Of a stretch of DNA of 64,000 bases, positions 5,431-25,651 are shown piece by piece. Position numbers and translations under genes: made by a program. Positions within the stretch are counted from its first letter, which is position 1, and every line of letters begins with the position of its first letter. Source of the DNA: Escherichia coli (GTDB lineage: Bacteria; Pseudomonadota; Gammaproteobacteria; Enterobacterales; Enterobacteriaceae); NCBI RefSeq assembly GCF_022846255.1, contig NZ_AP025682.1, one strand, 5' to 3'. The notes under the pieces were generated by a model. It searched no databases, was not told the DNA's origin, and worked only from the letters and a program-made list of their open reading frames with translations.

Positions 5431-7779
5431 CTACTCTTTTACTAATTTTCCACTTTTATCCCAGGCGGAGAATGGCATGGGTTTCTGGTACAGATACCCC
5501 TGAGCCTGAACACATCCTAATTTGATTAATTCACGCGCAACGTCTTCGCTCTCTACGCCTTCCGCAATCACCGGGATCCGGTTATAGCGTGCCAGATCGA
5601 AAATAATGCGCACAATTTTTCCCGCAGTACCGAAAATATCGCCGGTAAATTGCGAATCCACCTTTATACTGTCTGGATTAATTTCATAAAAACGTTTCAG
5701 GTTTGACAAACCGGTGCCAAAGTCATCAATCGATACCCGTACCCCTTGTTTACGCAGTTGTTCAATATTGAGATAGAAATGTTCATTAATTCGCTCGATC
5801 ACGGTTTCGGTGATCTCAACACAAAGGCTGTTCGCCTTCAGGCCATTTTCTTTCATGATGGTAGTAAAACGCTCATGAAAGTGTGGTTCGTTTAACTGCC
5901 AGGGCGAAACATTAATATGCAGTAAGAAATCATCCTTCAGCGACGCACGCTGACTAAAATGTCTGAATTCACCCATCGCGGTTTTAATAATTTGATAGCC
6001 CAGCTCATTGATAAACCCGATATCTTCAGCAATGGTAATGAACTTCAGCGGTGAAATAATCCCCCGCTCCGCAGACACCCAACGGCACAACGCCTCCGCG
6101 CCCAAAATGGTGCGGGTGTTAATATCAACAATCGGTTGATAGACCAGGAATAGTTCGCCAATTTCCATTGCATGGCGAATATTACGCGCAATCCAGATAT
6201 TCTCTTCTATTTCGTTGAGTTTCGCATCATCACAGAAAATAAACTCTGAGAACATATGGTTGCGGATACTGGAAATCGCCAGTTTCAGCTTTTCTGCGTA
6301 ACTCCAGGCGTTTTCCCCCTGCAAAGGTTCACAAATAGCAGACTTATGGATGCGCAGATTGCGGTAGCCAAAACTGCTGTCAAAATCGTTTACCGTCGCT
6401 ATCTTACGGGTAAACGTCTGTACATTTTCCCGGCACAGGAGTAAATAGAGATCGGCATTAAATGTCACGATATCGCAGCATTGCGCATATTTCTCGGCAA
6501 TTCGCTGACACAATTTCCTGACGATTTTATTGCGTTCATCAACACCAAACACCGCTTCCACAGCTTCCAGACCACACAGTTTGATGATCCCCACAGCCAG
6601 ATACTGATTATTGTTGGACTCAATAATCGCCATATTTTTAATAAAACCGCTTTCCTGATCGTAAGAGATCAGCGAGAGCAATTTATTTGCCCGTTCAATT
6701 TCAGCATCTTTCATTTCCGCGATCGAATTTTTGATGCTGATAATCTCTTTCGCATCGCCTTCACGAATCTTCAGGGCCTCGATTTGATCCGTAGAGTCAG
6801 GCAAAAACGCCAGCGTATTGACCAAATCTGTCATTTCAGAAAATTGCCGACGGAACACTCGAGTGGTCATTAAATAAACCACCAGCAATACGATAATAAT
6901 GAAAGCAAACGGCAGATAAAAAAGTTTATCTGATGCGTTCAATAAATTACCACCAGGATAATAAAAATAGATTTCGAATAATGCGTTGTTTGGCACCGCT
7001 GATGTTTTTTCAATATATTCCGTATCGACAGAATCAATAATATTATAATTACCTTCGCTATTATAAATAATCAATTTTTCACGAGCGAGTTGATTCTTAG
7101 CAATGATCTCATGACCTTGCTTTAAAAATAGAACTTCATCATTAGCGCTGATGTGATCAAGATACTCGTTCAGATATCGCCAGTTTAAATCGACATGAAT
7201 TTTATCTACCGCTAACAAATCATGATCTTTGCCGTTGATGTGTAGCGTAAAAGAGATACATTTTTTACCCGGACGATCAAAGCAATTGTATGCCGGGTTC
7301 CAGCTGTTGTTAGAGTCATCTGAAGCCATCGACCACGGTCGTTTCGATGGGTTAAAATCGGCAAAAATAACCCGCCCTGACTCGTCGACAAGCGGTCCAT
7401 TTACTTGTTCCTGATGATAAACAACGATTTTATTATTCGCCCTCCGCGAAAAGAGATAATATTTATTATCATCAAGTACCAGTCCCACCGAGTCTAAAAA
7501 TGGCATCATTTCCATTTTCAGAATTACGGCGCGTTGAATCTCCTCTGTATTTTTTAATAAATACAGTGAGTCCTTTAATGTCAGGGCCGAACGTTCAATA
7601 TCTTTAAAGAAATAGCCAACGTTTTTCTGAATAAGTTCAAAGCGGCTATCGGCACGTTTTACCGCGCGTTCCGATACCAGTTGATAGTTAATGATGAAAA
7701 AAAGACCAATAAATGACAGTGCTGCCAATAAAAATAAAATTATCAGCCTTATCTTTATCTTTTCGTATAAACTCAGCAT
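5431..7779 (-). CDS. pdeI: c-di-GMP phosphodiesterase (EAL) PdeI/YliE with periplasmic sensor region (782 aa)
   Basis: ORF track; TM segments flanking a large N-terminal domain; C-terminal EAL domain; synteny with dgcI. Confidence 0.9.
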
Positions 7780-11365: not shown

Positions 11366-13237
11366 TTATCTACGCATGAATGCGTATTCTGATTGTGGTT
11401 GTGCGACGTAATGCCCCGGCCCGACGCATTGCAACGAGACGACTGCAACTTCTTCGCCACGCAGATGAATATTGCTGGGAAGATCGTCCGACAGCAGTAC
11501 ACGCTGCGGTCGTTGTCGGGACGGTTCAGCGACCGGAACTGCCGCCAGTAATTTACGCGTATAAGGATGCTGCGGATTTTCAAAGACCGCGCGCCGTGGA
11601 CCAATTTCAACAACTTGCCCGAGATACATCACCGCCACACGATGACTAATCCGCTCAACCACGGCCATATCGTGGGAGATAAACAGATACGCAATGCCGA
11701 AATCACGCTGGAGATCGAGCAACAAGTTGATAATCTGCCCGCGAATAGAAACATCCAGCGCCGAGACGGCTTCGTCGGCAATGATCACTTTTGGATTCAA
11801 TGCCAACGCGCGAGCAATGCAGATGCGCTGGCGCTGACCGCCGGAAAACTCATGAGGGTAACGCCAGGCATGTTCCGGTAACAGACCCACGCGCTCCAGC
11901 AACCACGCAACGCGTGCAGCCGCTTCTTTACCTGGCAATAAACCGTGTACGCGCAGCGGTTCGAGAATCGAATCACCGATGGTCTGACGTGGGTCCAGCG
12001 AAGCGTAAGGGTCCTGAAAAATAAACTGAATATCGCGGCGCAATGCCTGAAGTTTACCGGGTGACAAGGTATCGATTCGCTGACCGTTAAAGATAATTTC
12101 GCCGCCTTGCGATTCGACCAGGCGCAGCAACGCCCGCCCGGTGGTGGATTTACCGCTGCCAGACTCGCCCACCAGCGATAGCGTTTCACCAGGCCAGAGA
12201 TCAAAACTGACTTTCTCAACGGCATGCACTTCCCGCGTTACGCGATTCAACAAACCGCTGCGCAAAGGGAAACGGGTGACCAGATTACGCACCCGTAAAA
12301 CAGGTTCGCCATCCACCACCGTTTTCTGCTCGATGGGTGGCTCCTGTTTCGCTGGATGTTCAAGCGATATCAATGGGAAACGTCGGGGATAATCTAACCC
12401 TTTCATCGCACCAAGTTGCGGAACAGCAGCTAACAGCGCACGGGTATAAGGATGTTGCGGTGCATGAAAAATCTGTTCGACGCTACCCGTTTCCACCGCC
12501 TCGCCCTGATACATCACCAGTACCCGATCGGCAATCTCTGCCACCACACCCATATCGTGAGTGATAAAGATAACGCCCATCGACATCTCTTTTTGCAATA
12601 CTTTGATTAATTGCAGGATCTGCGCCTGAATAGTGACATCCAGCGCGGTGGTTGGCTCATCGGCAATCAGCACCGCCGGGCGGCATGACAGCGCCATCGC
12701 AATCATCACTCGCTGGCGCATCCCGCCAGAGAGTTGATGCGGATAACGTGAAAGAATGGTTTGTGCCTCCGGAATGCGTACCTGATCCAGCATCCGCTTC
12801 GCCTCGACCATCGCTTCTTCACGACTGGCGTTCTGATGCAGACGAATAGATTCGGCAATCTGTTCACCCACAGCAAATACCGGGTTCAGCGATGTCATCG
12901 GCTCCTGAAATATCATCGCCATATCCGCCCCGCGCACATGGCGCATTTGTGCAGCACTCTGCTCGCTAAGTTCAATTACTTCGCGACTGCGCCGCTGCAA
13001 CAGCATTTTATCGCACTGCACTAAACCGCCCGCCTGTTCCAACAGGCGCATCAATGCCAGCGCAGTCACTGACTTACCGGAGCCGGATTCGCCAACAATT
13101 GCCAGCGTCTCACCACGTTGCAGGCTAAAAGAGAGATTGCGGACCGCAGCTATTTTCTGCTGCTCCTGCATAAAGGCAATATTCAGATTTTCAACCGCCA
13201 GCACATCACCGGCATCAAGTTCATCACTGTGTGGCAA
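11366..13237 (-). CDS. gsiA: glutathione ABC transporter ATPase GsiA, two nucleotide-binding domains (623 aa), TTG start
   Basis: two Walker A motifs ([18 protein letters not shown]); start placed at the TTG encoding L of ..[10 protein letters not shown] to match the 623-aa length; overlaps the iaaA 3' end by 14 nt. Confidence 0.85.
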
Positions 13238-14189
13238 CGGTGTCCCCTCTTTCACGGTAGATACCGGTGGTTGGCGTATCGCCTGCGTAGCCCCAGGCGC
13301 GATACATTCCTTCGGTGTTAAACGGTAGCGCGACATTCCCTTCATGGTCGATAGCGATTAAGCCACCGCTACCGCCAAGCGCAGGGAGTTTTTCCATTAC
13401 TACCCGCTCGCAGGCTTCCGCGAGACTTAATCCGCCGTAATCCATTAACGCGGCGATATCATATGCCGCCAACGCGCGGATGAAGACTTCGCCCGTGCCG
13501 GTACAGGAAACCGCCACACTGGCGTTATTGGCATAGCATCCGGCCCCCACTAAGGGACTATCGCCAACTCGTCCGGGTAATTTATTGGTCATTCCGCCCG
13601 TGGACGTGGCTGCCGCCAGATTGCCGTCTAAATCCAACGCCACGGCCCCCACGGTGCCCATTTTCTGTTTTTCATCCAGTGGCGCACCGCTATGGTCGAG
13701 AACCATTGCCCCTTCCTCGCGCGCTGCCAGTAGTTGTTCATAACGCAAAGGCGTGGAGAAAATCTCCGGCGAGACGCGCTCCATGCCATGAGCAAACGCA
13801 AAATTTTCTGCCCCTTCGCCAATCATCATCACATGCGGGCTTTGCTCCATCACCAGCCGGGCGGCAAGAACCGGATTACGCAGATGACTAACGCCTGCCA
13901 CCGCACCGGCTTTCAGGGTGTTACCATCCATCACACAGGCGTCCAGTTCATGGGTTTCATCACGCGTAAAGACAGCGCCAATTCCGGCGTTAAACAGTGG
14001 ACACTCTTCCAGCAGACGCACCGCTTCCGTCACCACATCCAGCGCACTTTCGCCCGCTTCCAGCATTTTCTGCCCGGTTTCAACAATGGCAGACAGCGCC
14101 TCGATGTAGCGTAATTCCTGTTGCAGACTCATCTGCGCGCGGCTAATTGCACCTGCGCCGCCATGAATTGCAATGACTGCTTTGCCCAT
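13224..14189 (-). CDS. iaaA: isoaspartyl dipeptidase / asparaginase-like Ntn hydrolase IaaA (321 aa)
   Basis: ORF track; [16 protein letters not shown]-terminus; GTVGAVALD autoprocessing region. Confidence 0.92.
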
Positions 14190-14392
14190 AGTATTCGTCC
14201 ATTAAGGGTGGCTCGCCACTTTTGCTATAAATATCAGAATTTTTATGAATGACTCATTCAATTTTTGAATATAGAAAGATGGATATGGCATGTAAAGGCA
14301 GGAGCCAACGCTACGCCCGAGGTGGCATACAGTCTGTGGCGTTTTTCTGACATAATAGGCAAATTCGATTTTGCCTCCGCAGGAGTGTTTTC

Positions 14393-15628
14393 ATGGAATT
14401 TACCACCGGATTGATGTCGCTCGACACCGCGCTTAATGAGATGCTTTCTCGCGTTACCCCACTGACCGCCCAGGAAACGCTGCCACTGGTTCAGTGTTTT
14501 GGTCGTATTCTGGCGAGCGATGTCGTTTCGCCACTGGATGTCCCGGGGTTTGATAACTCCGCTATGGACGGCTACGCGGTGCGTTTAGCCGATATTGCCT
14601 CCGGGCAACCGCTGCCCGTTGCCGGTAAATCCTTTGCCGGTCAGCCGTACCATGGTGAATGGCCTGCGGGTACCTGCATTCGTATTATGACCGGTGCGCC
14701 GGTGCCAGAAGGCTGCGAAGCGGTGGTGATGCAGGAGCAGACTGAACAAACGGACAATGGCGTGCGTTTTACTGCTGAAGTGCGTAGCGGGCAAAATATT
14801 CGCCGTCGCGGTGAAGATATCTCTGCAGGTGCGGTTGTTTTCCCGGCGGGAACTCGCCTGACTACCGCGGAACTGCCAGTGATTGCTTCACTGGGGATTG
14901 CCGAAGTTCCGGTGATTCGTAAAGTGCGTGTAGCGCTGTTTTCTACCGGTGATGAACTCCAGTTGCCTGGTCAGCCACTGGGCGATGGCCAAATCTACGA
15001 TACCAACCGTCTCGCCGTACACCTGATGTTAGAACAGCTGGGTTGCGAGGTAATCAACTTAGGGATTATCCGCGACGATCCCCATGCCCTGCGCGCCGCA
15101 TTTATTGAAGCCGACAGCCAGGCGGATGTAGTGATCAGTTCCGGCGGTGTTTCAGTGGGTGAAGCGGATTACACCAAAACCATTCTCGAAGAGCTGGGTG
15201 AAATCGCCTTCTGGAAGCTGGCGATTAAACCGGGTAAACCGTTCGCGTTCGGTAAACTCAGCAATAGCTGGTTCTGCGGCCTGCCGGGTAATCCGGTTTC
15301 AGCAACGCTGACCTTCTATCAACTGGTACAGCCGTTACTGGCAAAATTGAGCGGCAACACCGCCAGCGGCCTGCCCGCGCGTCAGCGCGTACGCACGACA
15401 TCGCCTCTGAAGAAATCGCCAGGACGCCTTGATTTCCAGCGCGGCGTGCTGCAACGTAATGCTGACGGTGAACTGGAAGTCACCACCACCGGGCATCAGG
15501 GCTCACATATATTTAGCTCTTTTAGCCTCGGCAACTGCTTTATCGTACTGGAACGCGAGCGCGGCAATGTAGAAGCGGGCGAATGGGTGGAAGTAGAACC
15601 ATTTAACGCGTTGTTCGGAGGCCTGTAA
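14393..15628 (+). CDS. moeA: molybdopterin molybdenumtransferase MoeA (411 aa)
   Basis: ORF track; MoeA family; synteny with moeB. Confidence 0.95.
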
Positions 15629-16377
15629 TGGCAGAACTCAGCGATCAGGAGATGCTGCGCTACAACCGGCAAATCATTCTGCGCGGTTTTGATTTTGACG
15701 GTCAGGAAGCATTGAAAGATTCCCGCGTGCTGGTCGTCGGCCTTGGTGGACTCGGCTGCGCAGCTTCGCAGTATCTGGCAAGCGCCGGTGTCGGCAACCT
15801 GACGCTGCTCGACTTCGACACGGTTTCGCTCTCCAATCTGCAACGCCAGACGCTGCACAGTGATGCCACGGTCGGGCAACCAAAGGTGGAATCCGCCCGT
15901 GACGCCCTGACGCGGATCAACCCACATATCGCGATTACGCCAGTCAATGCGCTGCTTGATGACGCTGAACTTGCTGCGATGATTGCAAAACACGATCTGG
16001 TGCTCGACTGTACGGATAACGTTGCAGTACGTAATCAACTGAACGCAGGCTGTTTTGCCGCGAAGGTGCCGCTGGTTTCCGGCGCGGCAATTCGTATGGA
16101 AGGGCAAATCACGGTCTTCACTTATCAGGACGGCGAACCGTGCTATCGCTGCCTTAGCCGTTTGTTTGGCGAGAACGCGTTAACCTGCGTAGAAGCAGGC
16201 GTGATGGCACCGTTGATCGGCGTAATTGGTTCGTTGCAGGCAATGGAAGCGATCAAACTGCTGGCAGGTTATGGCAAACCAGCCAGCGGGAAAATCGTGA
16301 TGTACGATGCGATGACCTGTCAGTTTCGCGAAATGAAACTGATGCGTAATCCGGGGTGTGAGGTGTGCGGGCAGTAA
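15628..16377 (+). CDS. moeB: molybdopterin-synthase adenylyltransferase MoeB (249 aa)
   Basis: ORF track; ThiF/MoeB fold GLGGLGC, C-terminal CxxC pairs; start overlaps the moeA stop (TAATG). Confidence 0.95.
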   Translation: MAELSDQEMLRYNRQIILRGFDFDGQEALKDSRVLVVGLGGLGCAASQYLASAGVGNLTLLDFDTVSLSNLQRQTLHSDATVGQPKVESARDALTRINPHIAITPVNALLDDAELAAMIAKHDLVLDCTDNVAVRNQLNAGCFAAKVPLVSGAAIRMEGQITVFTYQDGEPCYRCLSRLFGENALTCVEAGVMAPLIGVIGSLQAMEAIKLLAGYGKPASGKIVMYDAMTCQFREMKLMRNPGCEVCGQ

Positions 16378-16439
16378 CTGCCACCTCCAGGCCAGATAAG
16401 ACGCGGCACTCCGCCACGTCATCAGCAATTTATGAGGAT

Positions 16440-16469
16440 GCAGAACGTCCGGTTAAATCGACGTTCTGC
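16440..16469. terminator. hairpin spanning the fsaA stop between convergent moeB and fsaA
   Basis: 10-bp inverted repeat gcagaacgtc ... gacgttctgc. Confidence 0.35.
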
Positions 16470-17115
16470 CAAACGCTCCCAGCCAGTCCTGTTCAAACTT
16501 CGCCACAGCGGCATCAACTGCCGGATAGCTAATCATCTGTTGTGCCACATCCAGTGGCAGAGTAATTGATTCACACCCTGCCAGTAAGCAGTCCAGCGCC
16601 TGACGCGGGGTTTTGAAACTCGCGGCTAACACTTTCGCCTGCGGCGCATGCATTTTCAATAACTGGTGTAAGTCGGTCACAGTCTGAATACCGCTACCGC
16701 CCTGAGCATCAATACGATTAACGTAAGGCGCAACATATTCCGCACCTGCCAGCGCCGACAGTAGCCCTTGTGCTGCGCCATATACCGCGGTTCCCAGCGT
16801 CGGAATCCCTTCCGCTTTTAACATCTTAATAGCTGCCAGCCCCTCAGCGGTCACCGGAACTTTCACCACGATATCCGCAATAATAGAACGCAATTTACGT
16901 GCGTCATTCACCATCCCTTCAGCAGTGGTAGCCATTACCTGGGCAAATAGACGCCCCTGACCGCCCATCGCCTCGTGAAGTTGCGGAAGCACAACCTCCA
17001 GCGGTTTTTTACCCGCAGCGATAATGCTTGGGTTAGTGGTTACACCCGCCAGCGGAAAAATACGTGACAGCGCCTTCACCGCAACAACGTCTGAAGTATC
17101 CAGATACAGTTCCAT
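16453..17115 (-). CDS. fsaA: fructose-6-phosphate aldolase 1 (220 aa)
   Basis: ORF track trimmed to [10 protein letters not shown]; transaldolase-like TIM barrel. Confidence 0.92.
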
Positions 17116-17245
17116 AACCATCCTCAAAATGTACTTTTTGTCTGAATGTAGACTATCACGGGAAAACTCTCTGAACAGTTGACGTACATCAATCTAACTT
17201 TCATTCGAAAGTATTTTAATGTTTGAACGAAACAGAGAGGCAACT

Positions 17246-18145
17246 ATGATTTTCAATATTCAACGCTACTCGACCCATGATGGCCCCGGTATCCGCACGG
17301 TCGTATTTCTTAAAGGCTGTTCGCTGGGCTGCCGCTGGTGTCAGAACCCGGAAAGCCGCGCCCGCACGCAGGATCTGCTGTATGACCCACGACTCTGTCT
17401 GGAAGGCTGTGAACTGTGCGCTAAGACCGCACCGGAAGTGATTGAGCGCGCGTTGAATGGTTTGCTTATTCATCGGGAAAAGTTAACCCCGGAGCATTTT
17501 ACGGCGCTAACCGACTGCTGCCCGACACAGGCGTTAACCGTGTGTGGTGAAGTGAAAAGCGTTGAGGAGATCATGGCAACCGTTTTGCGCGATAAACCGT
17601 TTTACGAGCGCAGCGGCGGCGGCTTAACGCTTTCTGGCGGTGAACCGTTTATGCAGCCGGAAATGGCGACGGCGCTGCTGCAAGCCAGCCACGAGGCCGG
17701 CATTCATACTGCGGTAGAAACCTGTCTGCATGTGCCGTGGAAATATATCGCCCCTTCTCTGCCCTATATCGATCTGTTTCTTGCCGATTTAAAACACGTT
17801 GCCGACGCGCCGTTTAAACAGTGGACCGACGGTAACGCCGCCAGGGTGCTGGATAACCTGAAAAAACTCGCCGCAGCCGGCAAAAAAATCATTATCCGCG
17901 TGCCACTGATTCAAGGCTTTAATGCCGACGAAACTTCTGTGAAAGCCATTACCGATTTTGCCGCCGACGAGCTGCACGTTAGCGAAATTCATTTTCTGCC
18001 CTACCACACACTGGGCATCAACAAATATCACTTACTTAATCTGCCCTATGACGCCCCGGAAAAACCGCTTGATGCGCCAGAACTGCTCGACTTTGCCCAG
18101 CAGTATGCCTGCCAGAAAGGGTTAACCGCGACCTTACGAGGATAA
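17246..18145 (+). CDS. ybiY: glycyl-radical enzyme activating protein YbiY (radical SAM, 299 aa)
   Basis: ORF track trimmed to ATG preceded by GAGAGG RBS; CxxxCxxC motif (CSLGCRWC) plus extra ferredoxin-like Cys clusters. Confidence 0.88.
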
Positions 18146-18150
18146 CAATC

Positions 18151-20583
18151 ATGACAACACTAAAACTGGATACGCTCAGCGACCGCATTAAAGCGCACAA
18201 AAATGCGCTGGTGCATATTGTGAAACCGCCGGTCTGTACCGAACGAGCACAACACTATACCGAGATGTATCAACAACATCTCGATAAGCCAATCCCGGTA
18301 CGTCGCGCGCTGGCACTGGCGCATCACCTGGCGAATCGCACCATCTGGATCAAACATGATGAATTGATCATTGGCAACCAGGCAAGCGAAGTTCGCGCCG
18401 CGCCGATCTTCCCGGAATATACTGTCTCATGGATCGAAAAAGAGATTGATGATCTGGCAGATCGTCCCGGTGCTGGCTTTGCGGTGAGCGAAGAGAACAA
18501 ACGCGTTCTGCATGAAGTGTGCCCGTGGTGGCGCGGTCAGACCGTACAGGATCGCTGCTACGGCATGTTTACCGATGAGCAAAAAGGTCTGCTGGCGACC
18601 GGCATCATTAAAGCGGAAGGCAATATGACCTCCGGCGATGCGCACCTGGCGGTCAATTTCCCGCTGCTGCTGGAAAAAGGGCTTGATGGTCTGCGCGAGA
18701 AAGTAGCGGAACGTCGCTCGCGCATCAACCTGACGGTGCTGGAAGATTTACACGGTGAGCAATTCCTGAAAGCGATTGATATCGTGCTGGTGGCAGTCAG
18801 TGAACACATTGAACGTTTCGCTGCCCTGGCGCGTGAAATGGCCGCGACCGAAACCCGCGAAAGCCGTCGCGATGAACTGCTGACGATAGCAGAAAACTGC
18901 GATCTTATCGCCCACCAGCCGCCGCAGACTTTCTGGCAGGCGCTGCAACTATGTTACTTCATCCAGTTGATTTTGCAGATCGAATCTAACGGTCACTCGG
19001 TATCGTTTGGTCGTATGGACCAGTATCTCTACCCATACTATCGCCGCGACGTTGAACTGAACCAGACACTGGATCGCGAACACGCCATCGAGATGCTGCA
19101 TAGCTGCTGGTTGAAATTGCTGGAAGTGAACAAAATCCGCTCCGGCTCACACTCAAAAGCCTCTGCGGGAAGTCCGCTATATCAGAACGTCACCATTGGC
19201 GGGCAAAATCTGGTTGATGGTCAACCGATGGACGCGGTAAATCCACTCTCTTATGCGATCCTCGAATCTTGCGGTCGCCTGCGTTCGACTCAGCCTAACC
19301 TCAGCGTGCGTTACCATGCGGGTATGAGTAACGATTTCCTCGACGCCTGTGTGCAGGTGATCCGCTGCGGCTTCGGGATGCCGGCGTTCAACAACGATGA
19401 AATCGTCATCCCGGAATTTATTAAACTCGGTATTGAACCGCAGGACGCTTACGACTACGCAGCAATTGGTTGTATCGAAACCGCCGTCGGTGGCAAATGG
19501 GGCTATCGCTGTACCGGCATGAGCTTTATCAACTTCGCCCGCGTGATGCTGGCGGCGCTGGAAGGTGGTCGTGATGCCACCAGCGGCAAAGTGTTCCTGC
19601 CACAAGCAAAAGCGTTGTCAGCGGGTAACTTCAACAACTTCGATGAAGTAATGGACGCATGGGATACGCAAATCCGTTACTACACGCGTAAATCAATCGA
19701 AATCGAATATGTCGTCGACACCATGCTGGAAGAGAACGTACACGATATTCTCTGCTCGGCGCTGGTCGATGACTGTATTGAGCGAGCGAAAAGTATCAAG
19801 CAAGGCGGCGCGAAATATGACTGGGTTTCTGGCCTGCAGGTCGGCATTGCTAACCTCGGCAACAGCCTGGCGGCAGTGAAGAAACTGGTATTTGAACAGG
19901 GAGCGATTGGTCAGCAACAGCTGGCTGCCGCACTGGCGGATGACTTCGACGGCCTGACTCACGAGCAGCTGCGTCAGCGGCTGATTAACGGTGCGCCGAA
20001 GTACGGCAACGACGATGATACTGTCGATACGCTGCTGGCTCGCGCTTATCAGACCTATATCGACGAACTAAAACAGTACCATAACCCGCGCTATGGTCGT
20101 GGTCCGGTTGGCGGCAATTATTACGCGGGTACGTCATCTATCTCCGCTAACGTACCCTTTGGCGCGCAGACGATGGCAACGCCGGACGGACGTAAAGCGC
20201 ATACCCCGCTGGCAGAAGGCGCTAGTCCGGCCTCCGGTACTGATCATCTTGGCCCTACTGCGGTCATTGGCTCAGTGGGTAAACTGCCTACGGCCGCGAT
20301 TCTCGGCGGCGTGCTGCTCAACCAGAAACTGAATCCAGCAACGCTGGAGAACGAATCTGACAAGCAGAAACTGATGATCCTGCTGCGTACCTTCTTTGAA
20401 GTGCATAAAGGCTGGCATATTCAGTACAACATCGTTTCCCGCGAAACGCTGCTGGAAGCGAAAAAACATCCGGATCAGTACCGCGATCTGGTAGTGCGCG
20501 TCGCGGGCTATTCCGCCTTCTTCACCGCGCTCTCTCCAGACGCTCAAGACGATATCATCGCCCGTACTGAACATATGCTGTAA
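18151..20583 (+). CDS. ybiW: pyruvate formate-lyase-like glycyl radical enzyme YbiW (810 aa)
   Basis: ORF track; C-terminal glycyl radical motif RVAGYSAFF; immediately downstream of its activase. Confidence 0.92.
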   Translation: MTTLKLDTLSDRIKAHKNALVHIVKPPVCTERAQHYTEMYQQHLDKPIPVRRALALAHHLANRTIWIKHDELIIGNQASEVRAAPIFPEYTVSWIEKEIDDLADRPGAGFAVSEENKRVLHEVCPWWRGQTVQDRCYGMFTDEQKGLLATGIIKAEGNMTSGDAHLAVNFPLLLEKGLDGLREKVAERRSRINLTVLEDLHGEQFLKAIDIVLVAVSEHIERFAALAREMAATETRESRRDELLTIAENCDLIAHQPPQTFWQALQLCYFIQLILQIESNGHSVSFGRMDQYLYPYYRRDVELNQTLDREHAIEMLHSCWLKLLEVNKIRSGSHSKASAGSPLYQNVTIGGQNLVDGQPMDAVNPLSYAILESCGRLRSTQPNLSVRYHAGMSNDFLDACVQVIRCGFGMPAFNNDEIVIPEFIKLGIEPQDAYDYAAIGCIETAVGGKWGYRCTGMSFINFARVMLAALEGGRDATSGKVFLPQAKALSAGNFNNFDEVMDAWDTQIRYYTRKSIEIEYVVDTMLEENVHDILCSALVDDCIERAKSIKQGGAKYDWVSGLQVGIANLGNSLAAVKKLVFEQGAIGQQQLAAALADDFDGLTHEQLRQRLINGAPKYGNDDDTVDTLLARAYQTYIDELKQYHNPRYGRGPVGGNYYAGTSSISANVPFGAQTMATPDGRKAHTPLAEGASPASGTDHLGPTAVIGSVGKLPTAAILGGVLLNQKLNPATLENESDKQKLMILLRTFFEVHKGWHIQYNIVSRETLLEAKKHPDQYRDLVVRVAGYSAFFTALSPDAQDDIIARTEHML

Positions 20584-20728
20584 TCTTCTCAGCCCGGCGG
20601 CGGCGTCGCCGGGCTAAATCATTCACATCATCAATTTCAGCCTCGCTTTCATTCGAAATATAATTTGTGCTCTGCGTCACATTGTTATTACACTGTTACG
20701 GTTTCATTTTCGAGCCAGGAGCACACCT

Positions 20729-21544
20729 ATGAGCGTAAAAGTTATCGTCACAGACATGGACGGTACTTTTCTTAACGACGCCAAAACGTACAACCAACCA
20801 CGTTTTATGGCGCAATATCAGGAACTGAAAAAGCGCGGCATTGAGTTCGTTGTCGCCAGCGGTAATCAGTATTACCAGCTTATTTCGTTCTTTCCTGAGC
20901 TAAAGGATGAGATCTCTTTTGTCGCGGAAAACGGCGCACTGGTTTACGAACATGGCAAGCAGTTGTTCCACGGCGAACTGACCCGACATGAATCGCGGAT
21001 TGTTATTGGCGAGTTGCTAAAAGATAAGCAACTCAATTTTGTCGCCTGCGGTCTGCAAAGTGCATATGTCAGCGAAAATGCCCCCGAAGCATTCGTCGCA
21101 CTGATGGCAAAACACTACCATCGCCTGAAACCTGTAAAAGATTATCAGGAGATTGACGACGTACTGTTCAAGTTTTCGCTCAACCTGCCGGATGAACAAA
21201 TCCCGTTAGTGATCGACAAACTGCACATAGCGCTGGATGGCATTATGAAACCCGTCACCAGTGGTTTTGGCTTTATCGACTTGATTATTCCCGGTCTACA
21301 TAAAGCAAACGGTATTTCGCGGTTACTGAAACGCTGGGATCTGTCACCGCAAAATGTGGTAGCGATTGGCGACAGCGGTAACGATGCGGAGATGCTGAAA
21401 ATGGCCCGTTATTCCTTTGCGATGAGCAATGCTGCGGAAAACATTAAACAAATCGCCCGTTACGCTACCGATGATAATAATCATGAAGGCGCGCTGAATG
21501 TGATTCAGGCGGTGCTGGAAAATAAACCGCCGTTTAATCTTTGA
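20729..21544 (+). CDS. ybiV: HAD-family (Cof-type) sugar phosphatase YbiV (271 aa)
   Basis: ORF track; DMDGT HAD motif I at N-terminus, GDSGND motif near C-terminus. Confidence 0.9.
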
Positions 21545-21582
21545 TTATCGCCAATTCAGTTTATTGAGAAAGTGCATGTCAT

Positions 21583-21683
21583 TATGCCGGATACGGCGTA
21601 ACCGCCTTATTTGGCATACAAAATCATGAAAATTCAATATATTGCGATACACTGCCAGGCCTGATAAGCGTAGCGCACCAGGC
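21583..21683. repeat. BIME-1/RIP-like element: degenerate REP, IHF-like linker, REP
   Basis: gccggatacggcgtaaccgccttatttggc, then linker with tcaatatattg (IHF-like WATCAAnnnnTTR), then gcctgataagcgtagcgcaccaggc; followed by hairpin cagtagccctga...tcagggctactg at about 21709..21737. Confidence 0.75.
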
Positions 21684-21743
21684 AATCTTGCGTTTGTCAT
21701 CAGTTTCAGTAGCCCTGACCACATCAGGGCTACTGATAATAAC

Positions 21744-23336
21744 TTACTCGATCCCTTTACTACGCAGGTAATCTTCGTAATTACCGCTAAAGTCGATCAC
21801 GCGTTCCGGGGTGATTTCCAGAATACGGGTCGCCAGGGAGCTTACGAACTCACGGTCGTGTGAAACAAAGATCAGCGTGCCCTGATACAGTTCCAGCGCC
21901 ATGTTCAGCGACTCAATAGATTCCATATCCAGGTGGTTGGTCGGTTCGTCCATGATCAGAATGTTCGGCTTCTGCATCATTAACTTACCAAACAGCATCC
22001 GCCCTTTCTCCCCACCGGAAAGCACTTTCGCTGGCTTTTTGATGTCGTCCTGGCTGAACAGCAAACGACCGAGAATGCTGCGTACCGCCTGCTCGTCATC
22101 GCCTTCCTGCTTCCACTGGCTCATCCATTCGAACACGGTCAGATCATTTTCAAACTCATATTCGTGGTCCTGAGCGTAGTAACCAATGCGCGCGTTTTCA
22201 GACCATTTTACGGTGCCGCTGTCCGGTTGCAGATCGCCCACCAGCGTTTTCAGCAGCGTTGATTTACCGACGCCGTTGGTACCCAGTACCGCCAGTTTTT
22301 CACCCACTTCCAGCAGCAGGTTGAGATTTTTAAACAGTGGACCGTTATCAAACCCTTTAGTCAGACCTTCCACTTCCAGCGCGTTACGGAACAGTTTCTT
22401 ATCCTGCTCAAAACGGATGAACGGGTTCTGACGGCTGGAGGCTTTCACCTCTTCCAGTTTGATTTTATCAATCTGGCGCGCACGCGAAGTTGCCTGGCGA
22501 GATTTCGAGGCGTTGGCGCTAAAGCGGCTAACGAAAGATTGCAACTCAGCAATCTGCGCTTTCTTCTTGGCGTTATCAGCCAGCAGACGTTCACGCGCCT
22601 GAGTCGCCGCCGTCATGTACTCATCGTAGTTGCCCGGATAAACGCGCAGCTCGCCGTAATCCAGATCCGCCATGTGGGTACAAACCATGTTAAGGAAGTG
22701 ACGGTCGTGCGAGATGATGATCATGGTGCTGTCACGCTCGTTCAGCACCTGTTCCAGCCAGCGAATGGTGTCGATGTCGAGGTTGTTGGTCGGTTCGTCG
22801 AGCAGGAGAATGTCCGGATCAGCAAACAGCGCCTGAGCCAGCAGCACACGCAGCTTCCAGCCAGGAGCAACTTCACTCATCGGGCCGTAGTGCTGTTCCA
22901 CTGGAATTCCCACGCCAAGCAACAGTTCACCAGCGCGAGCTTCCGCAGAGTAACCGTCCATTTCGCCGTATTTCACTTCCAGATCGGCCACTTTATAGCC
23001 GTCTTCTTCACTCATTTCCGGCAAAGCATAGATGCGGTCACGCTCCTGCTTCACTTCCCACAACTCTTTATGCCCCATGATCACCGTATCCAGCACAGTG
23101 AACTCTTCAAAGGCAAACTGATCCTGACGCAGCTTACCAATGCGCTCGTTGGGATCGAGGGAAACGTTACCCAACGTCGGCTCTAAGTCGCCGCCGAGGA
23201 TCTTCATAAAGGTGGATTTACCACTACCGTTCGCGCCAATCAGGCCGTAACGGTTGCCGCCGCCGAATTTGACGGAAATGTTTTCAAACAACGGCTTACT
23301 GCCGAACTGCATGGTGACGTTACTGGAAACTAACAC
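21744..23336 (-). CDS. ybiT: ABC-F family ATPase YbiT, tandem ABC domains (530 aa)
   Basis: ORF track; two Walker A motifs ([18 protein letters not shown]); no TM domain. Confidence 0.92.
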
Positions 23337-23554
23337 AGGCGTATCCTGAAAAGAGATATGACAAACCGCGCATTATGCCATAAGTCTGAAAGAAGATCCT
23401 GCTCCTCGCTTAAGGTCTACACTCAAGCCAAAGGCAAAAAATGTGATTTCGTACACATCTGATTTCACTGTGAGCTGGAATGAACTTATAATGCACTTCC
23501 AATACTCTAATATTCTCAACCCAATGGCCTGCCAGGCACAAAATCTCGCTTAAC

Positions 23555-24475
23555 ATGAATATGAAATTGAAAACATTATTCGCAGCGGCCTTCGCTGTTG
23601 TCGGCTTTTGCAGTACCGCCTCTGCGGTAACTTATCCTCTGCCAACCGACGGGAGTCGCCTGGTTGGTCAGAATCAGGTGATCACCATTCCTGAAGGTAA
23701 CACTCAGCCGCTGGAGTATTTTGCCGCCGAGTACCAGATGGGACTTTCCAATATGATGGAAGCGAACCCGGGTGTGGATACCTTCCTGCCGAAAGGCGGT
23801 ACTGTACTGAACATTCCGCAGCAGCTGATCCTGCCGGATACCGTTCATGAAGGCATCGTCATTAACAGTGCAGAGATGCGTCTGTATTACTATCCGAAAG
23901 GGACCAACACCGTTATCGTGCTACCGATCGGCATTGGTCAGTTAGGCAAAGACACGCCTATCAACTGGACCACCAAAGTTGAGCGTAAAAAAGCAGGCCC
24001 GACCTGGACGCCGACCGCTAAAATGCACGCAGAGTACCGCGCTGCGGGCGAACCGCTTCCGGCGGTCGTTCCGGCTGGTCCGGATAACCCGATGGGGCTG
24101 TATGCACTCTACATCGGTCGCCTGTACGCTATCCATGGCACCAACGCCAACTTCGGTATCGGCCTGCGTGTAAGTCATGGTTGTGTGCGTCTGCGTAACG
24201 AAGACATCAAATTCCTGTTCGAGAAAGTACCGGTCGGTACCCGCGTACAGTTTATTGATGAGCCGGTAAAAGCGACCACCGAGCCAGACGGCAGCCGTTA
24301 TATTGAAGTCCATAACCCGCTGTCTACCACTGAAGCCCAGTTTGAAGGTCAGGAAATTGTGCCAATTACCCTGACGAAGAGCGTGCAGACAGTGACCGGT
24401 CAGCCAGATGTTGACCAGGTTGTTCTGGATGAAGCGATCAAAAATCGTTCCGGGATGCCGGTTCGTCTGAATTAA
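23555..24475 (+). CDS. ldtB: L,D-transpeptidase LdtB/YbiS (306 aa)
   Basis: ORF track; signal peptide; YkuD domain with SHGCVRL catalytic motif. Confidence 0.92.
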
Positions 24476-24492
24476 TCTTCAAAACGTAAAGC

Positions 24493-24520
24493 AAAGGCGG
24501 ACTCATAATCCGCCTTTTTA
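24493..24520. terminator. bidirectional rho-independent terminator between convergent ldtB and ybiR
   Basis: aggcgga-loop-tccgcct stem followed by TTTTT; A-rich on the other side. Confidence 0.7.
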
Positions 24521-24532
24521 ATTTGACAGACC

Positions 24533-25651
24533 TTATCCCGCCGGGATCATAACCAACAAAACATATCCCACCAGCGCCGCCCACAACAGCATCGGTATCG
24601 AATAAAGATGAAAACGCCACCAGATACGGCGATCGTTCGCCATCCGTAACGCAATCAAATTTGCCAGCGATCCGGGTAATAAACCAAAGCCACCTACGTT
24701 TACCGCCCATGCCAGTAATAAAGACGGTGGCACATAATTGAGCAGCAAAATGGTACTCGGCACGTTACTGATCACCTGCGATAAACCAATCGCCGTTAAC
24801 CATAATCCGGGGTCGGATAAATGACTCACGTTACTTAACACCCCCTGCAAAGCTGGCAGTTGGGTTAGTAAATGGACGTCGATAAACATCGCCATAAACA
24901 CCAGCAGCAGCGTCCAGTCCACACTGAGCACCACGCGACGCGCCAGCAGCGCAAAGCCCGCCGCCACAATCACCAGTCCCCACAGCTCTTGTTTTAACTC
25001 CAGCGCCGTCAGAAAGACGATATACAGCCCCAGACAACTCCACACCAGCCGCGGTTTCCACTCCGGCGTTTGCACCCCCGTATGGTATTGCAGCGCCTTT
25101 CCAGGGAAACAACACCAGCACAACAGCAGGAGTGTCAGCATCATTGCGCCAGCCAGCGGTGCCATTTGGGCAATAAATCCGGCAAACGAAAGACCAGAAC
25201 GTCCCCAGATAAGAATATTTTGCGGGTTGCCAATTGGCGTCAGTAGCGAACCAGCGTTGACTGCCAGCGCCTCAAAAATAATCAGCCGATTAACCGGGAT
25301 CTCACACAGTCTTTTTAGCGTGATAGTCAGCGGAACAACTATAAACAGCGCGACATCGTTGGTCAGAAAGGTAGAAAGCAGCGCTGCCGCCAGTACCATA
25401 AACATCGCCAGCCGACGCTCCGTAGCAAAACGGCGCACCATTTTGCGCCCCAGCACATCAAAATAACCGCTTAACTCGACACCTTTGGTCAGCAGCATCA
25501 GGCCGCTTAAGGTGATGATGGTGTGCCAGTCGATAGCAGCAGGCCAGGATTTCGGTGCAAAGGGAACGAAAAAACTTAATCCGATGCCAACAAGAATTAA
25601 TAACTGAAAAAAACGATCGCCTTGCAGCGTGCGTAAAAAAGGCAGGCTCAT
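24533..25651 (-). CDS. ybiR: putative anion/ion transporter YbiR (372 aa)
   Basis: ORF track; polytopic membrane protein; synteny downstream of mntR. Confidence 0.88.

Follow-up and report, generated by a model that had tools for sequence, protein, structure and literature searches.

A glycyl radical enzyme (GRE) and its activase, encoded beside an aldolase and a sugar phosphatase, raise the question of which compound is processed by the products of fsaA, ybiY, ybiW and ybiV. These genes occupy positions 16453–21544 of the window, by which we mean the whole 64 kb stretch of E. coli DNA that was analysed. An earlier note made from the sequence had proposed an anaerobic sugar or sugar-phosphate route for them, and had ranked the locus among the less well-defined units, with a substrate that was not obvious.

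Gene content of the locus

All four genes are intact according to the ORF listing and the RefSeq annotation of an E. coli genome 99.2% identical to the window (Table 1). Exactly 5 nt (18146–18150) separate the ybiY stop codon from the ybiW ATG, and fsaA lies divergently upstream, both as noted earlier. The mechanical ORF list had placed the start of fsaA at a TTG (17127), which was rejected in favour of the ATG given in the table. All but one of 5426 complete E. coli genomes (5425) contained the cluster. In K-12, the genes have the order and orientation seen in the window, and catalytic residues, promoter elements and operators are identical too; the proteins differ by 6 (YbiW), 7 (YbiY), 3 (FsaA) and 7 (YbiV) substitutions, none of those in YbiW affecting C441, E443 or G786. 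The ybiU gene (DUF1479), which K-12 has between ybiV and ybiT and which 4249 of the 5426 genomes carry, is missing from the window strain.

Table 1. Genes and predicted regulatory elements of the fsaA-ybiYW-ybiV locus (window coordinates)
Feature	Position	Strand	Remarks
fsaA	16453-17115	-	220 aa; start ATG 17115
FNR-type box TTGACGTACATCAA	17179-17192	+	9/10 match to TTGAT-N4-ATCAA; centre 41.5 bp upstream of predicted TSS
Operator O1 CTTTCATTCGAAA, proposed YciT site	17198-17210	+	core TTTC-N4-GAAA; between -35 and -10 of ybiY promoter
-10 hexamer TTTAAT, ybiY promoter	17215-17220	+	at least 90% conserved
Second operator-like element TTTGAACGAAA	17222-17232	+	around predicted TSS; 60-90% conserved
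ybiY, glycyl-radical-enzyme activase	17246-18145	+	299 aa; C25/C29/C32 radical-SAM cluster and extra Cys-rich insert
ybiW, glycyl radical enzyme	18151-20583	+	810 aa; G786 radical site, C441 thiyl site, E443 in GCIE
GC-rich hairpin, no U-tract	20591-20615	+	directly 3' of ybiW stop; -22.5 kcal/mol, z = -4.9
Second operator copy CTTTCATTCGAAA	20646-20658	+	upstream of ybiV; exact 13-mer
CRP-like palindrome TGTGC-N6-TCACA	20666-20681	+	9/10 match; candidate regulator site in ybiV promoter region
Candidate ybiV -10 hexamer TACACT	20689-20694	+	putative; TAGAAT in most genera
ybiV (supH), Cof-type HAD-IIB sugar phosphatase	20729-21544	+	271 aa; D9-x-D11 motif

YbiW, its partner proteins and the substrate

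YbiW contains the PFL-like (PF02901, 698 bits) and Gly_radical (PF01228, 112.6 bits) domains of Pfam, which confirmed the PFL-like assignment of the earlier note, and the RVAGYSAFF motif it had pointed out includes RVAGY at residues 783–787 with G786 as the radical glycine. R783, A785, G786 and Y787 were invariant across 80 distinct YbiW orthologues, as were C441 (within AIGCIETA) and E443. YbiW thus has the attributes of a GRE, namely the glycine loop RVxG[FWY] in a Gly_radical domain, a PFL-like barrel, a thiyl-forming Cys and an adjacent radical-SAM activase, while GCIE at 440–443, a single Cys followed by the general-base Glu, assigns it to the eliminase/dehydratase class. It scored 1408.7 bits with TIGR01774, the PFL2/glycerol dehydratase subfamily (cut-off 678), and stayed below every substrate-specific NCBIfam equivalog cut-off. 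The GRE eliminases of this kind (glycerol dehydratase 1r8w, 5i2a, HypD 6vxc and CutC) share with YbiW the subfamily, the single catalytic Cys with a Glu two residues on, and an activase of their own that carries a Cys-rich insert; their reactions release water or an amine from small diols, whereas the chemistry reported for YbiW is the cleavage of a ring C–O ether in a sugar phosphate.

The name "putative pyruvate formate lyase" in the K-12 RefSeq annotation, the PFL-like Pfam domain and several PDB relatives called "formate C-acetyltransferase" would fit YbiW and YbiY being a spare pyruvate formate-lyase (PFL) and its activase. PflB and PflA do have the glycyl radical fold, the C-terminal glycine loop and radical-SAM activation in common with them. 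However, the adjacent Cys-Cys pair of PFL is absent from YbiW, which has GCIE instead; the PFL equivalog TIGR01255, with 161 bits, fell far short of its cut-off (994), and genuine PFL (1h16) matched only partially with 152 bits, compared with 551 bits for glycerol dehydratase. Since, in addition, the activity described for YbiW in a review is the cleavage of 1,5-anhydroglucitol-6-phosphate (PMC12441222), the chance that YbiW is a PFL is very small.

YbiW is 99% identical to the protein in PDB entries 8id7 and 8yjn (1851 bits, residues 1–810), which are named only "Probable dehydratase YbiW". With reference to Ma et al. (JACS 146:26187, 2024), the review states that YbiW, an oxygen-sensitive radical enzyme, converts 1,5-anhydroglucitol-6-phosphate (1,5-AG6P, hereafter AG6P) and PflD converts 1,5-anhydromannitol-6-phosphate (1,5-AM6P) into 1-deoxyfructose-6-phosphate; the reaction requires the glycyl radical, and it enables growth of E. 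coli on 1,5-anhydroglucitol (1,5-AG) (PMC12441222). Orthology to the crystallised and biochemically characterised E. coli enzyme places the YbiW of the window in the AG6P lyase group. The published substrate, a 1-deoxy/anhydro sugar phosphate, bears out the proposed sugar-phosphate route and falls into the class of deoxy and anhydro sugars that had been suggested for phenotyping (PMC12441222). The description of the substrate as not obvious and of the unit as ill-defined no longer holds, as the substrate was published in 2024.

With YbiW, PflD shares no more than about 38% identity, but it also has GCxE and RVAGYSAFF, and its route (PflD/PflC with FsaB, GldA and the Frw PTS; PDB 8yjo) has the same architecture of GRE, activase and FSA-type aldolase and leads to the same product. 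Since K-12 also carries this paralogous fsaB/pflD set (gldA-fsaB-ptsA and frwCB-pflD-pflC-frwD), the pairing of a GRE with an FSA aldolase occurs twice in one genome. The pflD cluster has PTS components and gldA of its own, neither of which is present at the ybiW locus.

YbiY has the Radical_SAM and Fer4_12 domains and scored 369.8 bits with TIGR02494 (cut-off 174); its radical-SAM motif C25-X3-C29-X2-C32 was invariant across 82 distinct orthologues. The extra ferredoxin-like Cys clusters claimed by the earlier note were only partly recovered: there is a Cys-rich insert with six further Cys, arranged as C51-X3-C55-X2-C58 and C91-C92-X7-C100, five of which were invariant among the 82 orthologues, but no canonical ferredoxin CX2CX2CX3C motif was found in it, let alone two. 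These Cys would suffice for one auxiliary cluster, and a second one is uncertain. The nearest solved structure, PFL-AE (3c8f), matched YbiY with just 92 bits; it lacks the insert and aligns only to residues 101–268. FsaA is a class I fructose-6-phosphate aldolase of the TAL/FSA type (TAL_FSA; NF009296, 452 bits, cut-off 306) with the Schiff-base K85 and a full-length match to 1l6w (456 bits). YbiV is a Cof-type HAD-IIB protein (TIGR00099, 219.8 bits, cut-off 137) with D9-M-D11 and a match to 1rlm/2hf2 (588 bits).

These assignments fit the following route. 1,5-AG, a dietary and host sugar analogue, would be imported by the PTS and become AG6P, which cannot be isomerised as glucose-6-phosphate is because the C1 hydroxyl is absent. 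YbiY would take a hydrogen from Gly786, the radical would pass to Cys441 with Glu443 as general base, and YbiW would open the ring by radical-mediated C–O cleavage to give 1-deoxyfructose-6-phosphate. FsaA would then split this product into glyceraldehyde-3-phosphate and hydroxyacetone, as suggested by the gene context and by the FsaA and GldA steps that the abstract of Ma et al. reportedly describes. YbiV, a broad-specificity sugar phosphatase, may hydrolyse AG6P or some related sugar phosphate.

YbiW could also be a dehydratase or eliminase of another diol or sugar with AG6P cleavage as a side activity, fsaA and ybiV then pointing to a different sugar phosphate. The PDB name, the B12-independent glycerol dehydratase 1r8w as the closest characterised sequence relative, the merely generic naming of YbiV as a sugar phosphatase in the annotation and the PDB, and the ORF listing and annotation, which include no 1,5-AG transporter or kinase at the locus, would agree with this. 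On the other hand, YbiW fell below the equivalog cut-offs for all specific substrates; FSA accepts hydroxyacetone as a donor, and 1-deoxyfructose-6-phosphate is its expected reverse-aldol substrate. The review also reports that E. coli grows on 1,5-AG by the YbiW pathway and has a parallel PflD route for the mannitol epimer, both of which speak against this alternative (PMC12441222); we regard it as very improbable. We read the locus as the set of E. coli genes that degrades 1,5-AG (1-deoxyglucose) anaerobically, repressed by YciT and served by an FNR-type promoter, with a probability of about 0.9. The published reaction and the YciT co-regulation agree with the comparative analysis; the function of the locus is already known, and what the earlier note had inferred was right but is explained in the literature.

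Promoter region and YciT regulation

The region upstream of ybiY has the layout of a class II FNR-dependent promoter, with the box near −41.5 and the −10 hexamer TTTAAT, from which the TSS was predicted. In 62 distinct orthologous intergenic regions the half-sites of the box were at least 90% conserved, whereas its 4-nt spacer was variable (40–60%). In Salmonella, a 100-bp fragment of the orthologous region with the FNR-type box was induced by hypoxia while a 50-bp fragment without it was silent, the promoter showed 150-fold hypoxic induction, and changing TTTAAT to TGTCAT abolished expression (PMC3326293). The papers found document anaerobic or hypoxic induction only, and no FNR experiment on the ybiY promoter was found among them; from the conserved box we infer FNR as the activator, and a class II FNR-type promoter, on only without oxygen, would drive ybiYW. 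According to a Reg-Seq preprint (bioRxiv 10.1101/2025.05.13.653802), activity of the ybiYW promoter was confined to anaerobic conditions; a pull-down with promoter DNA recovered YciT, which was placed near −5 of the preprint's own predicted TSS.

O1 is found at a fixed position and is conserved across about 60 loci. The exact 13-mer CTTTCATTCGAAA occurs twice, at O1 and upstream of ybiV, and nowhere else in the window; that the two upstream spacers have any 13-mer in common by chance has a probability of about 5e-4 to 8e-4. The second operator-like element of the ybiY promoter appears as TTCATATGAA or TTTATACGAAA in other genera, K-12 has a third operator copy at ybiU, and no TTTC-N4-GAAA operator was found at the pflD locus. 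In K-12, YciT ChIP-exo peaks were reported at ybiY/fsaA and at ybiV, and deletion of yciT changed expression by +7.7 (ybiY), +7.0 (ybiU), +2.2 (ybiV) and +1.8 (fsaA) log2 units, ybiW being also raised, by roughly +3 (PMC8464067). The published peak coordinates are about 100 bp off the proposed operators. YciT, a DeoR-type repressor encoded elsewhere in E. coli, would hold the ybiYW promoter off through the TTTC-N4-GAAA operators, and it is the inferred binder of the exact CTTTCATTCGAAA sequence. These data argue against unrelated regulation of the genes, as all of ybiY, ybiW, ybiV and fsaA are de-repressed by the yciT deletion (PMC8464067) and one operator lies upstream of both ybiY and ybiV.

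The position of ybiV and the distribution of the module

The earlier note had ybiV following ybiW. It does lie downstream on the same strand, but not simply in the same operon: the two genes are separated by 145 nt with a stable hairpin, and ybiV has its own conserved promoter region. In other genera, hairpins followed by T-runs are present at the position 3' of ybiW. In about 58 loci, a TTTC-N4-GAAA palindrome stands at a constant 81–87 nt from the ATG of ybiV; it occurs in both orientations (TTTCATTCGAAA, TTTCGAATGAAA, TTTCATATGAAA). The arms of the CRP-like palindrome are at least 90% conserved and its spacer is variable. A perfect TATAAT at 20659–20664 is an alternative to the candidate −10 hexamer of ybiV.

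In other species, ybiY and ybiW were adjacent in 80 of 80 loci, with fsaA divergently adjacent in most of them. With unrelated flanks, fsaA-ybiYW occurs in Serratia, Atlantibacter, Brenneria, Rouxiella, Buttiauxella and Mangrovibacter, and there are five or more different arrangements with a yciT homologue right next to the module. Across Enterobacterales, the three genes of fsaA-ybiYW behave as a module that can relocate as a whole, often with yciT beside it, and they co-occur outside E. coli even in relocated copies. Klebsiella/Raoultella, Phytobacter, some Kosakonia and the Yersinia enterocolitica group have no fsaA beside ybiYW, so a locally encoded aldolase is not a requirement. Co-occurrence of the four genes holds for fsaA-ybiYW, but ybiV is the least constant of them, being found with the module solely where the ancestral synteny of the chromosome (moeAB...ybiT) persists and missing from every relocated copy, those of Mixta and Yersinia included. 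The uncharacterised ybiU travels with the module, which may be a new observation.

This distribution, together with the hairpin and the 145-nt spacer and a search of the available literature that found no link of ybiV to anhydroglucitol, would suit ybiV being a syntenic neighbour without a role in the pathway, the unit then consisting of fsaA-ybiYW, plus yciT and ybiU in other species. We consider this unlikely, as the 13-mer operator of ybiY recurs exactly before ybiV, with constant spacing across about 58 loci, and ybiV is de-repressed, if modestly (4.6-fold), by the yciT deletion and has a YciT ChIP-exo peak assigned to it (PMC8464067). The operator before ybiV would place the sugar phosphatase in the YciT-repressed regulon of ybiYW.

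In the Yersinia enterocolitica, frederiksenii and alsatica group, ybiY-ybiW take the place of sgrT: they are flanked by the conserved, SgrR-dependent promoter of sgrS on one side and by the base-pairing core and the terminator of SgrS on the other, and thereby lie within the sgrS (sugar-phosphate stress) transcription unit. This arrangement may be new.

Beyond 1,5-AG breakdown, it is possible, albeit tentative, that the module exceeds catabolism and is part of a defence against a dead-end glucose-6-phosphate analogue. AG6P formed by the glucose PTS would act as a sugar-phosphate stressor, to be removed without oxygen by YbiW and FsaA, and in air by the co-regulated YbiV, plus the oxygenase-like YbiU where it is carried, while YciT would sense AG6P or its product. 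The strongest hint of such a defence is the Yersinia arrangement, because there ybiY-ybiW sit inside the sgrS unit. If this is true, the AG6P lyase would be transcribed within a sugar-phosphate-stress RNA in the Yersinia enterocolitica group, with SgrS as its 3' end.

Gene content and chemistry of the fsaA-ybiYWV locus

The four genes placed by the earlier note between 16,453 and 21,544 were all recovered there from the ORF list and from the annotation of an E. coli chromosome sharing 99.2% identity with the window region across 6 kb (see the table). They are flanked by moeA-moeB on one side and by ybiT-ldtB on the other, and since the 6-kb region was found in 5425 of 5426 complete E. coli genomes, it belongs to core E. 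coli DNA. As had been noted, 5 nt separate the ybiY stop from the ybiW start, and the glycyl motif RVAGYSAFF is present in YbiW with Gly786 as the radical site. FsaA, YbiY, YbiW and YbiV scored above curated family cut-offs, near-perfect matches to solved E. coli structures were obtained for YbiW (8id7/8yjn), FsaA (1l6w) and YbiV (1rlm/2hf2), and the catalytic residues of the enzymes are intact in this strain. Its YbiW carries six substitutions relative to K-12: E184K, A245T, M246I, H474R, E486A and D769E. YbiY carries the radical-SAM CX3CX2C motif (C25/C29/C32). The extra ferredoxin-like clusters ascribed to it held in part: six additional Cys residues, five of them invariant, are present, but they do not make up two textbook ferredoxin motifs. 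An Rfam scan of 13,000–25,000 gave nothing credible.

Features of the locus and of comparison loci in other genera (L numbers; other positions are those of the window)
Feature	Location	Strand	Context or basis
fsaA	16453-17115	-	ORF list; RefSeq annotation of near-identical E. coli chromosome
ybiY	17246-18145	+	ORF list; RefSeq annotation of near-identical E. coli chromosome
ybiW	18151-20583	+	ORF list; RefSeq annotation of near-identical E. coli chromosome
ybiV	20729-21544	+	ORF list; RefSeq annotation of near-identical E. coli chromosome
Shared 13-mer CTTTCATTCGAAA, two copies	17198-17210; 20646-20658		upstream of ybiY; upstream of ybiV
CRP-like palindrome TGTGC-N6-TCACA	20666-20681		between ybiV operator and candidate -10 hexamer
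ybiV-ybiT spacer (199 nt)	21545-21743		REP-like repeats
Relocated module, Serratia, Buttiauxella, Franconibacter			adjoining yciT-osmB-yciH-pyrF
Relocated module, Atlantibacter			between orn and queG, then three tRNA genes
tRNA genes, Atlantibacter	L086:12654-13020		directly 3' of ybiW
Relocated module, Brenneria, Rouxiella, Mangrovibacter, Mixta			flanks unlike E. coli moeAB...ybiT
Relocated module, Y. pseudotuberculosis	L093:5295-11158		adjoining phage-integrase fragment
ybiU homologue, Mixta	L094:3807-5075		with relocated fsaA-ybiYW(-yciT)
ybiU homologue, Rouxiella	L067:5978-7237		with relocated fsaA-ybiYW(-yciT)
ybiU homologue, Mangrovibacter	L076:14867-16129		with relocated fsaA-ybiYW(-yciT)
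ybiYW between sgrS promoter and SgrS core, Y. frederiksenii	L082:8972-12557
ybiYW between sgrS promoter and SgrS core, Y. alsatica	L080
ybiYW between sgrS promoter and SgrS core, Y. enterocolitica	L091:2440-6000

YbiW carries a lone Cys441 followed two positions later by Glu443 (GCIE), scored 1409 bits against TIGR01774, and its closest characterised relative is the B12-independent glycerol dehydratase; its sequence fits the glycyl radical enzymes of the eliminase class. Assignment as a pyruvate formate-lyase was rejected, as the Cys-Cys pair is missing and the TIGR01255 score of 161 bits falls short of the cut-off of 994. The K-12 RefSeq annotation (L089) still labels YbiW 'putative pyruvate formate lyase', an annotation lag, and a preprint version dated May 2026 still gives ybiYW no functional annotation (bioRxiv 10.1101/2025.05.13.653802).

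The anaerobic sugar-phosphate route anticipated from the neighbourhood agrees with the published YbiW reaction. According to a review (PMC12441222, citing Ma et al., JACS 2024), a PTS phosphorylates 1,5-anhydroglucitol (1,5-AG) and 1,5-anhydromannitol, and 1-deoxyfructose-6-phosphate is then formed from 1,5-anhydroglucitol-6-phosphate (AG6P) by YbiW and from 1,5-anhydromannitol-6-phosphate by PflD; this chemistry is glycyl-radical-dependent and strictly anaerobic, and through it 1,5-AG supports the growth of E. coli and many gut bacteria. The earlier description of the locus as one of the less well-defined functional units could not be upheld, since the AG6P pathway was recently solved and its repressor YciT had already been mapped. 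Ma et al. reportedly found that FsaA or FsaB splits 1-deoxyfructose-6-phosphate into glyceraldehyde-3-phosphate and hydroxyacetone, the latter of which is said to be then reduced by GldA. The second K-12 cluster, gldA-fsaB-ptsA / frwCB-pflD-pflC-frwD, follows the same logic as fsaA-ybiYW. The function of the locus is thus already known, the regulon having been described in 2021 and the chemistry and structures in 2024, and what looked undefined from sequence alone is a solved pathway, a housekeeping result for the window. The review (PMC12441222) also notes that 1,5-AG serves clinically as a glycaemic marker and that AG6P is the toxic metabolite in G6PC3/GSD-Ib neutropenia, which lends some medical interest to the sensing and removal of 1,5-AG by gut bacteria.

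Control by oxygen and YciT

A consensus scan of 16,300–21,800 for promoters and terminators gave counts no higher than those of shuffled controls and missed the real promoter elements, and it was replaced by phylogenetic footprinting with about 60 distinct orthologous spacers upstream of ybiY. These spacers contain a fixed array consisting of an FNR-type box, TTGAY-N4-RTCAA, whose half-sites are conserved and whose spacer varies, followed after 5 nt by CTTTCATTCGAAAG, then by TTTAAT and by a less exact second copy, TTCATATGAA or TTTGAACGAAA. If TTTAAT is the -10 hexamer, the centre of the FNR-type box falls at -41.5, the class II activating position. In Reg-Seq, the ybiYW promoter was active only anaerobically (bioRxiv 10.1101/2025.05.13.653802), and the orthologous Salmonella promoter (pflE) was induced 150-fold by hypoxia (Leschner et al. 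2012, PMC3326293). In the latter study, a 100-bp fragment that contains the FNR-type box sufficed, a 50-bp fragment starting at the operator was silent, and the TTTAAT to TGTCAT mutant was dead, which supports TTTAAT as the -10 hexamer and a requirement for the box upstream of it. The literature search found no FNR experiment on the ybiY promoter, and the cited YciT and promoter papers do not name FNR; the position of the box makes FNR a putative activator of ybiYW. Eight FNR-consensus matches with at most one mismatch were found in the window against 2.5 expected (none of 100 shuffles reached eight), the seven besides that at 17,179 lying at 7,090, 7,462, 8,925, 35,572, 41,273, 62,227 and 63,831.

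The two intergenic regions have in common an exact 13-mer, CTTTCATTCGAAA, which occurs only twice in the 64 kb window (probability of any such shared 13-mer < 1e-3). Upstream of ybiV, a TTTC-N4-GAAA palindrome was found in orthologous loci at a fixed distance of 81–87 nt from the ATG, in either orientation (TTTCATTCGAAA or TTTCGAATGAAA) or as the perfect palindrome TTTCATATGAAA, as would be expected of a site bound by a dimeric repressor. In K-12, a third copy lies 19 nt upstream of the ybiU ATG, and none was found in the K-12 pflD/fsaB locus, so this regulator site is not common to the two paralogous routes. For YciT, a protein of the DeoR family, ChIP-exo peaks were reported at ybiY/fsaA and ybiV together with a palindromic motif, and yciT deletion de-repressed ybiY, ybiU, ybiW, ybiV and fsaA, five genes that were proposed to form one unknown pathway (Gao et al. 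2021, PMC8464067). YciT was also recovered on ybiYW promoter DNA by mass spectrometry in Reg-Seq (bioRxiv 10.1101/2025.05.13.653802). The published peak coordinates are ~100 bp away from the conserved operators. Unrelated regulation, which the earlier note had raised as an argument against a functional unit, is contradicted by the published de-repression of ybiY, ybiW, ybiV and fsaA and by the operator common to ybiY and ybiV. We infer that the TTTC-N4-GAAA sequence is the YciT operator and that the YciT ligand may be AG6P or its product. The sugar-analogue catabolic module would then be under dual control, by oxygen through FNR and by its own dedicated repressor of the DeoR type. The enzymology and regulation literatures have remained apart, and joined they give a coherent picture.

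The position of ybiV downstream of ybiW was confirmed, but the gene forms its own transcription unit, with conserved promoter elements in the 145-nt spacer, which also contains a hairpin of -22.5 kcal/mol. The CRP-like palindrome in this spacer (9/10 match) has arms at least 90% conserved across genera and a variable spacer. CRP was rejected as an activator of ybiV, because, measured from the TSS that the best -10 candidate predicts, the palindrome sits ~27 bp upstream, which is not a usual activating position for CRP. No link between ybiV and anhydroglucitol was found in the literature search; YbiV may act as a phosphatase on AG6P or on a sugar phosphate related to it.

Mobility of the module and its companions

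The neighbourhood scan covered one genome per species and 80 loci encoding YbiW at 85–99% identity, all from Enterobacterales; the best 120 matches listed in the YbiW protein search were all at least 86% identical, and the named ones also belonged to this order. The expected co-occurrence outside E. coli was found, with ybiY and ybiW adjacent in 80/80 loci and fsaA divergent upstream in most, even where the flanks are unrelated to the moeAB...ybiT context. As fsaA stays with ybiYW in unrelated flanks, fsaA-ybiYW behaves as a transferable three-gene module, and this joint mobility independently supports the aldolase link. The 80-locus scan showed ybiYW with no neighbouring fsaA in Klebsiella/Raoultella, Phytobacter, some Kosakonia and the Y. 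enterocolitica group. The three tandem tRNA genes next to the minimal three-gene module of Atlantibacter are identical and may mark an insertion hot spot. The complete fsaA / ybiY ybiW - yciT-like module of Y. pseudotuberculosis lies close to mutS/rpoS and adjoins a phage-integrase fragment, a setting that points to possible horizontal acquisition, and the activase of this strain is probably inactive because ybiY is broken into two ORFs of 135 and 164 aa.

A YciT homologue (59–100% identity to the Serratia copy; 415 bits with the NCBIfam YciT model) was found beside the module in Serratia, Buttiauxella, Franconibacter, Affinibrenneria, Brenneria, Rouxiella, Mangrovibacter, Mixta and Y. pseudotuberculosis, located after ybiW (at the native yciT locus or in other contexts), after fsaA, after fsaA-ybiU or convergent with ybiW. 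Adjacency in several arrangements independently supports YciT as the dedicated regulator. Among the 80 loci, ybiV accompanies the module only where the ancestral synteny is kept and is therefore its weakest member on context alone. In contrast, ybiU also accompanies it in relocated contexts, an association that may be new. This gene (DUF1479) lies between ybiV and ybiT in K-12, unlike in this strain, where the ybiV-ybiT spacer contains no ybiU; it is present in 4249 of 5426 complete E. coli genomes (78%), and homologues (Pfam PF07350, Gig2-like) occur in 59 loci. In the K-12 yciT deletion ybiU was de-repressed 130-fold, its repression by YciT being as strong as that of ybiY (PMC8464067). No function for it was found in the searchable literature; one idea is that YbiU acts as an oxygen-dependent counterpart on the substrate of YbiW.

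Probable position of ybiYW within the sgrS unit in a Yersinia clade

In Y. frederiksenii, Y. alsatica and Y. enterocolitica, sgrR is followed by ybiY-ybiW and then by a setA-like exporter, and no fsaA, FNR box or TTTC-N4-GAAA operator was found at these loci. Up to and including the SgrS transcription start, the sgrR-ybiY spacer lines up base by base with the promoter between sgrR and sgrS in E. coli, and the only copy of the conserved sgrS promoter box in the locus lies upstream of ybiY. The base-pairing core and terminator of SgrS start directly 3' of the ybiW stop codon (Rfam match of 28.8 bits, E = 3.8e-5), and the SgrS terminator is the sole strong downstream terminator. A relative with an 82%-identical SgrR carries the usual sgrT at the position of ybiYW. 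Given the sgrS promoter upstream, the SgrS core and terminator downstream and sgrT in the relative, it appears that ybiYW has taken the place of sgrT within the transcription unit for sugar-phosphate stress. The literature search found no link between SgrS and anhydroglucitol, and the arrangement may be new. It suggests that in this Yersinia clade the AG6P lyase is expressed as part of a sugar-phosphate-stress RNA, which ties the enzyme to the response against non-metabolisable glucose-phosphate analogues.
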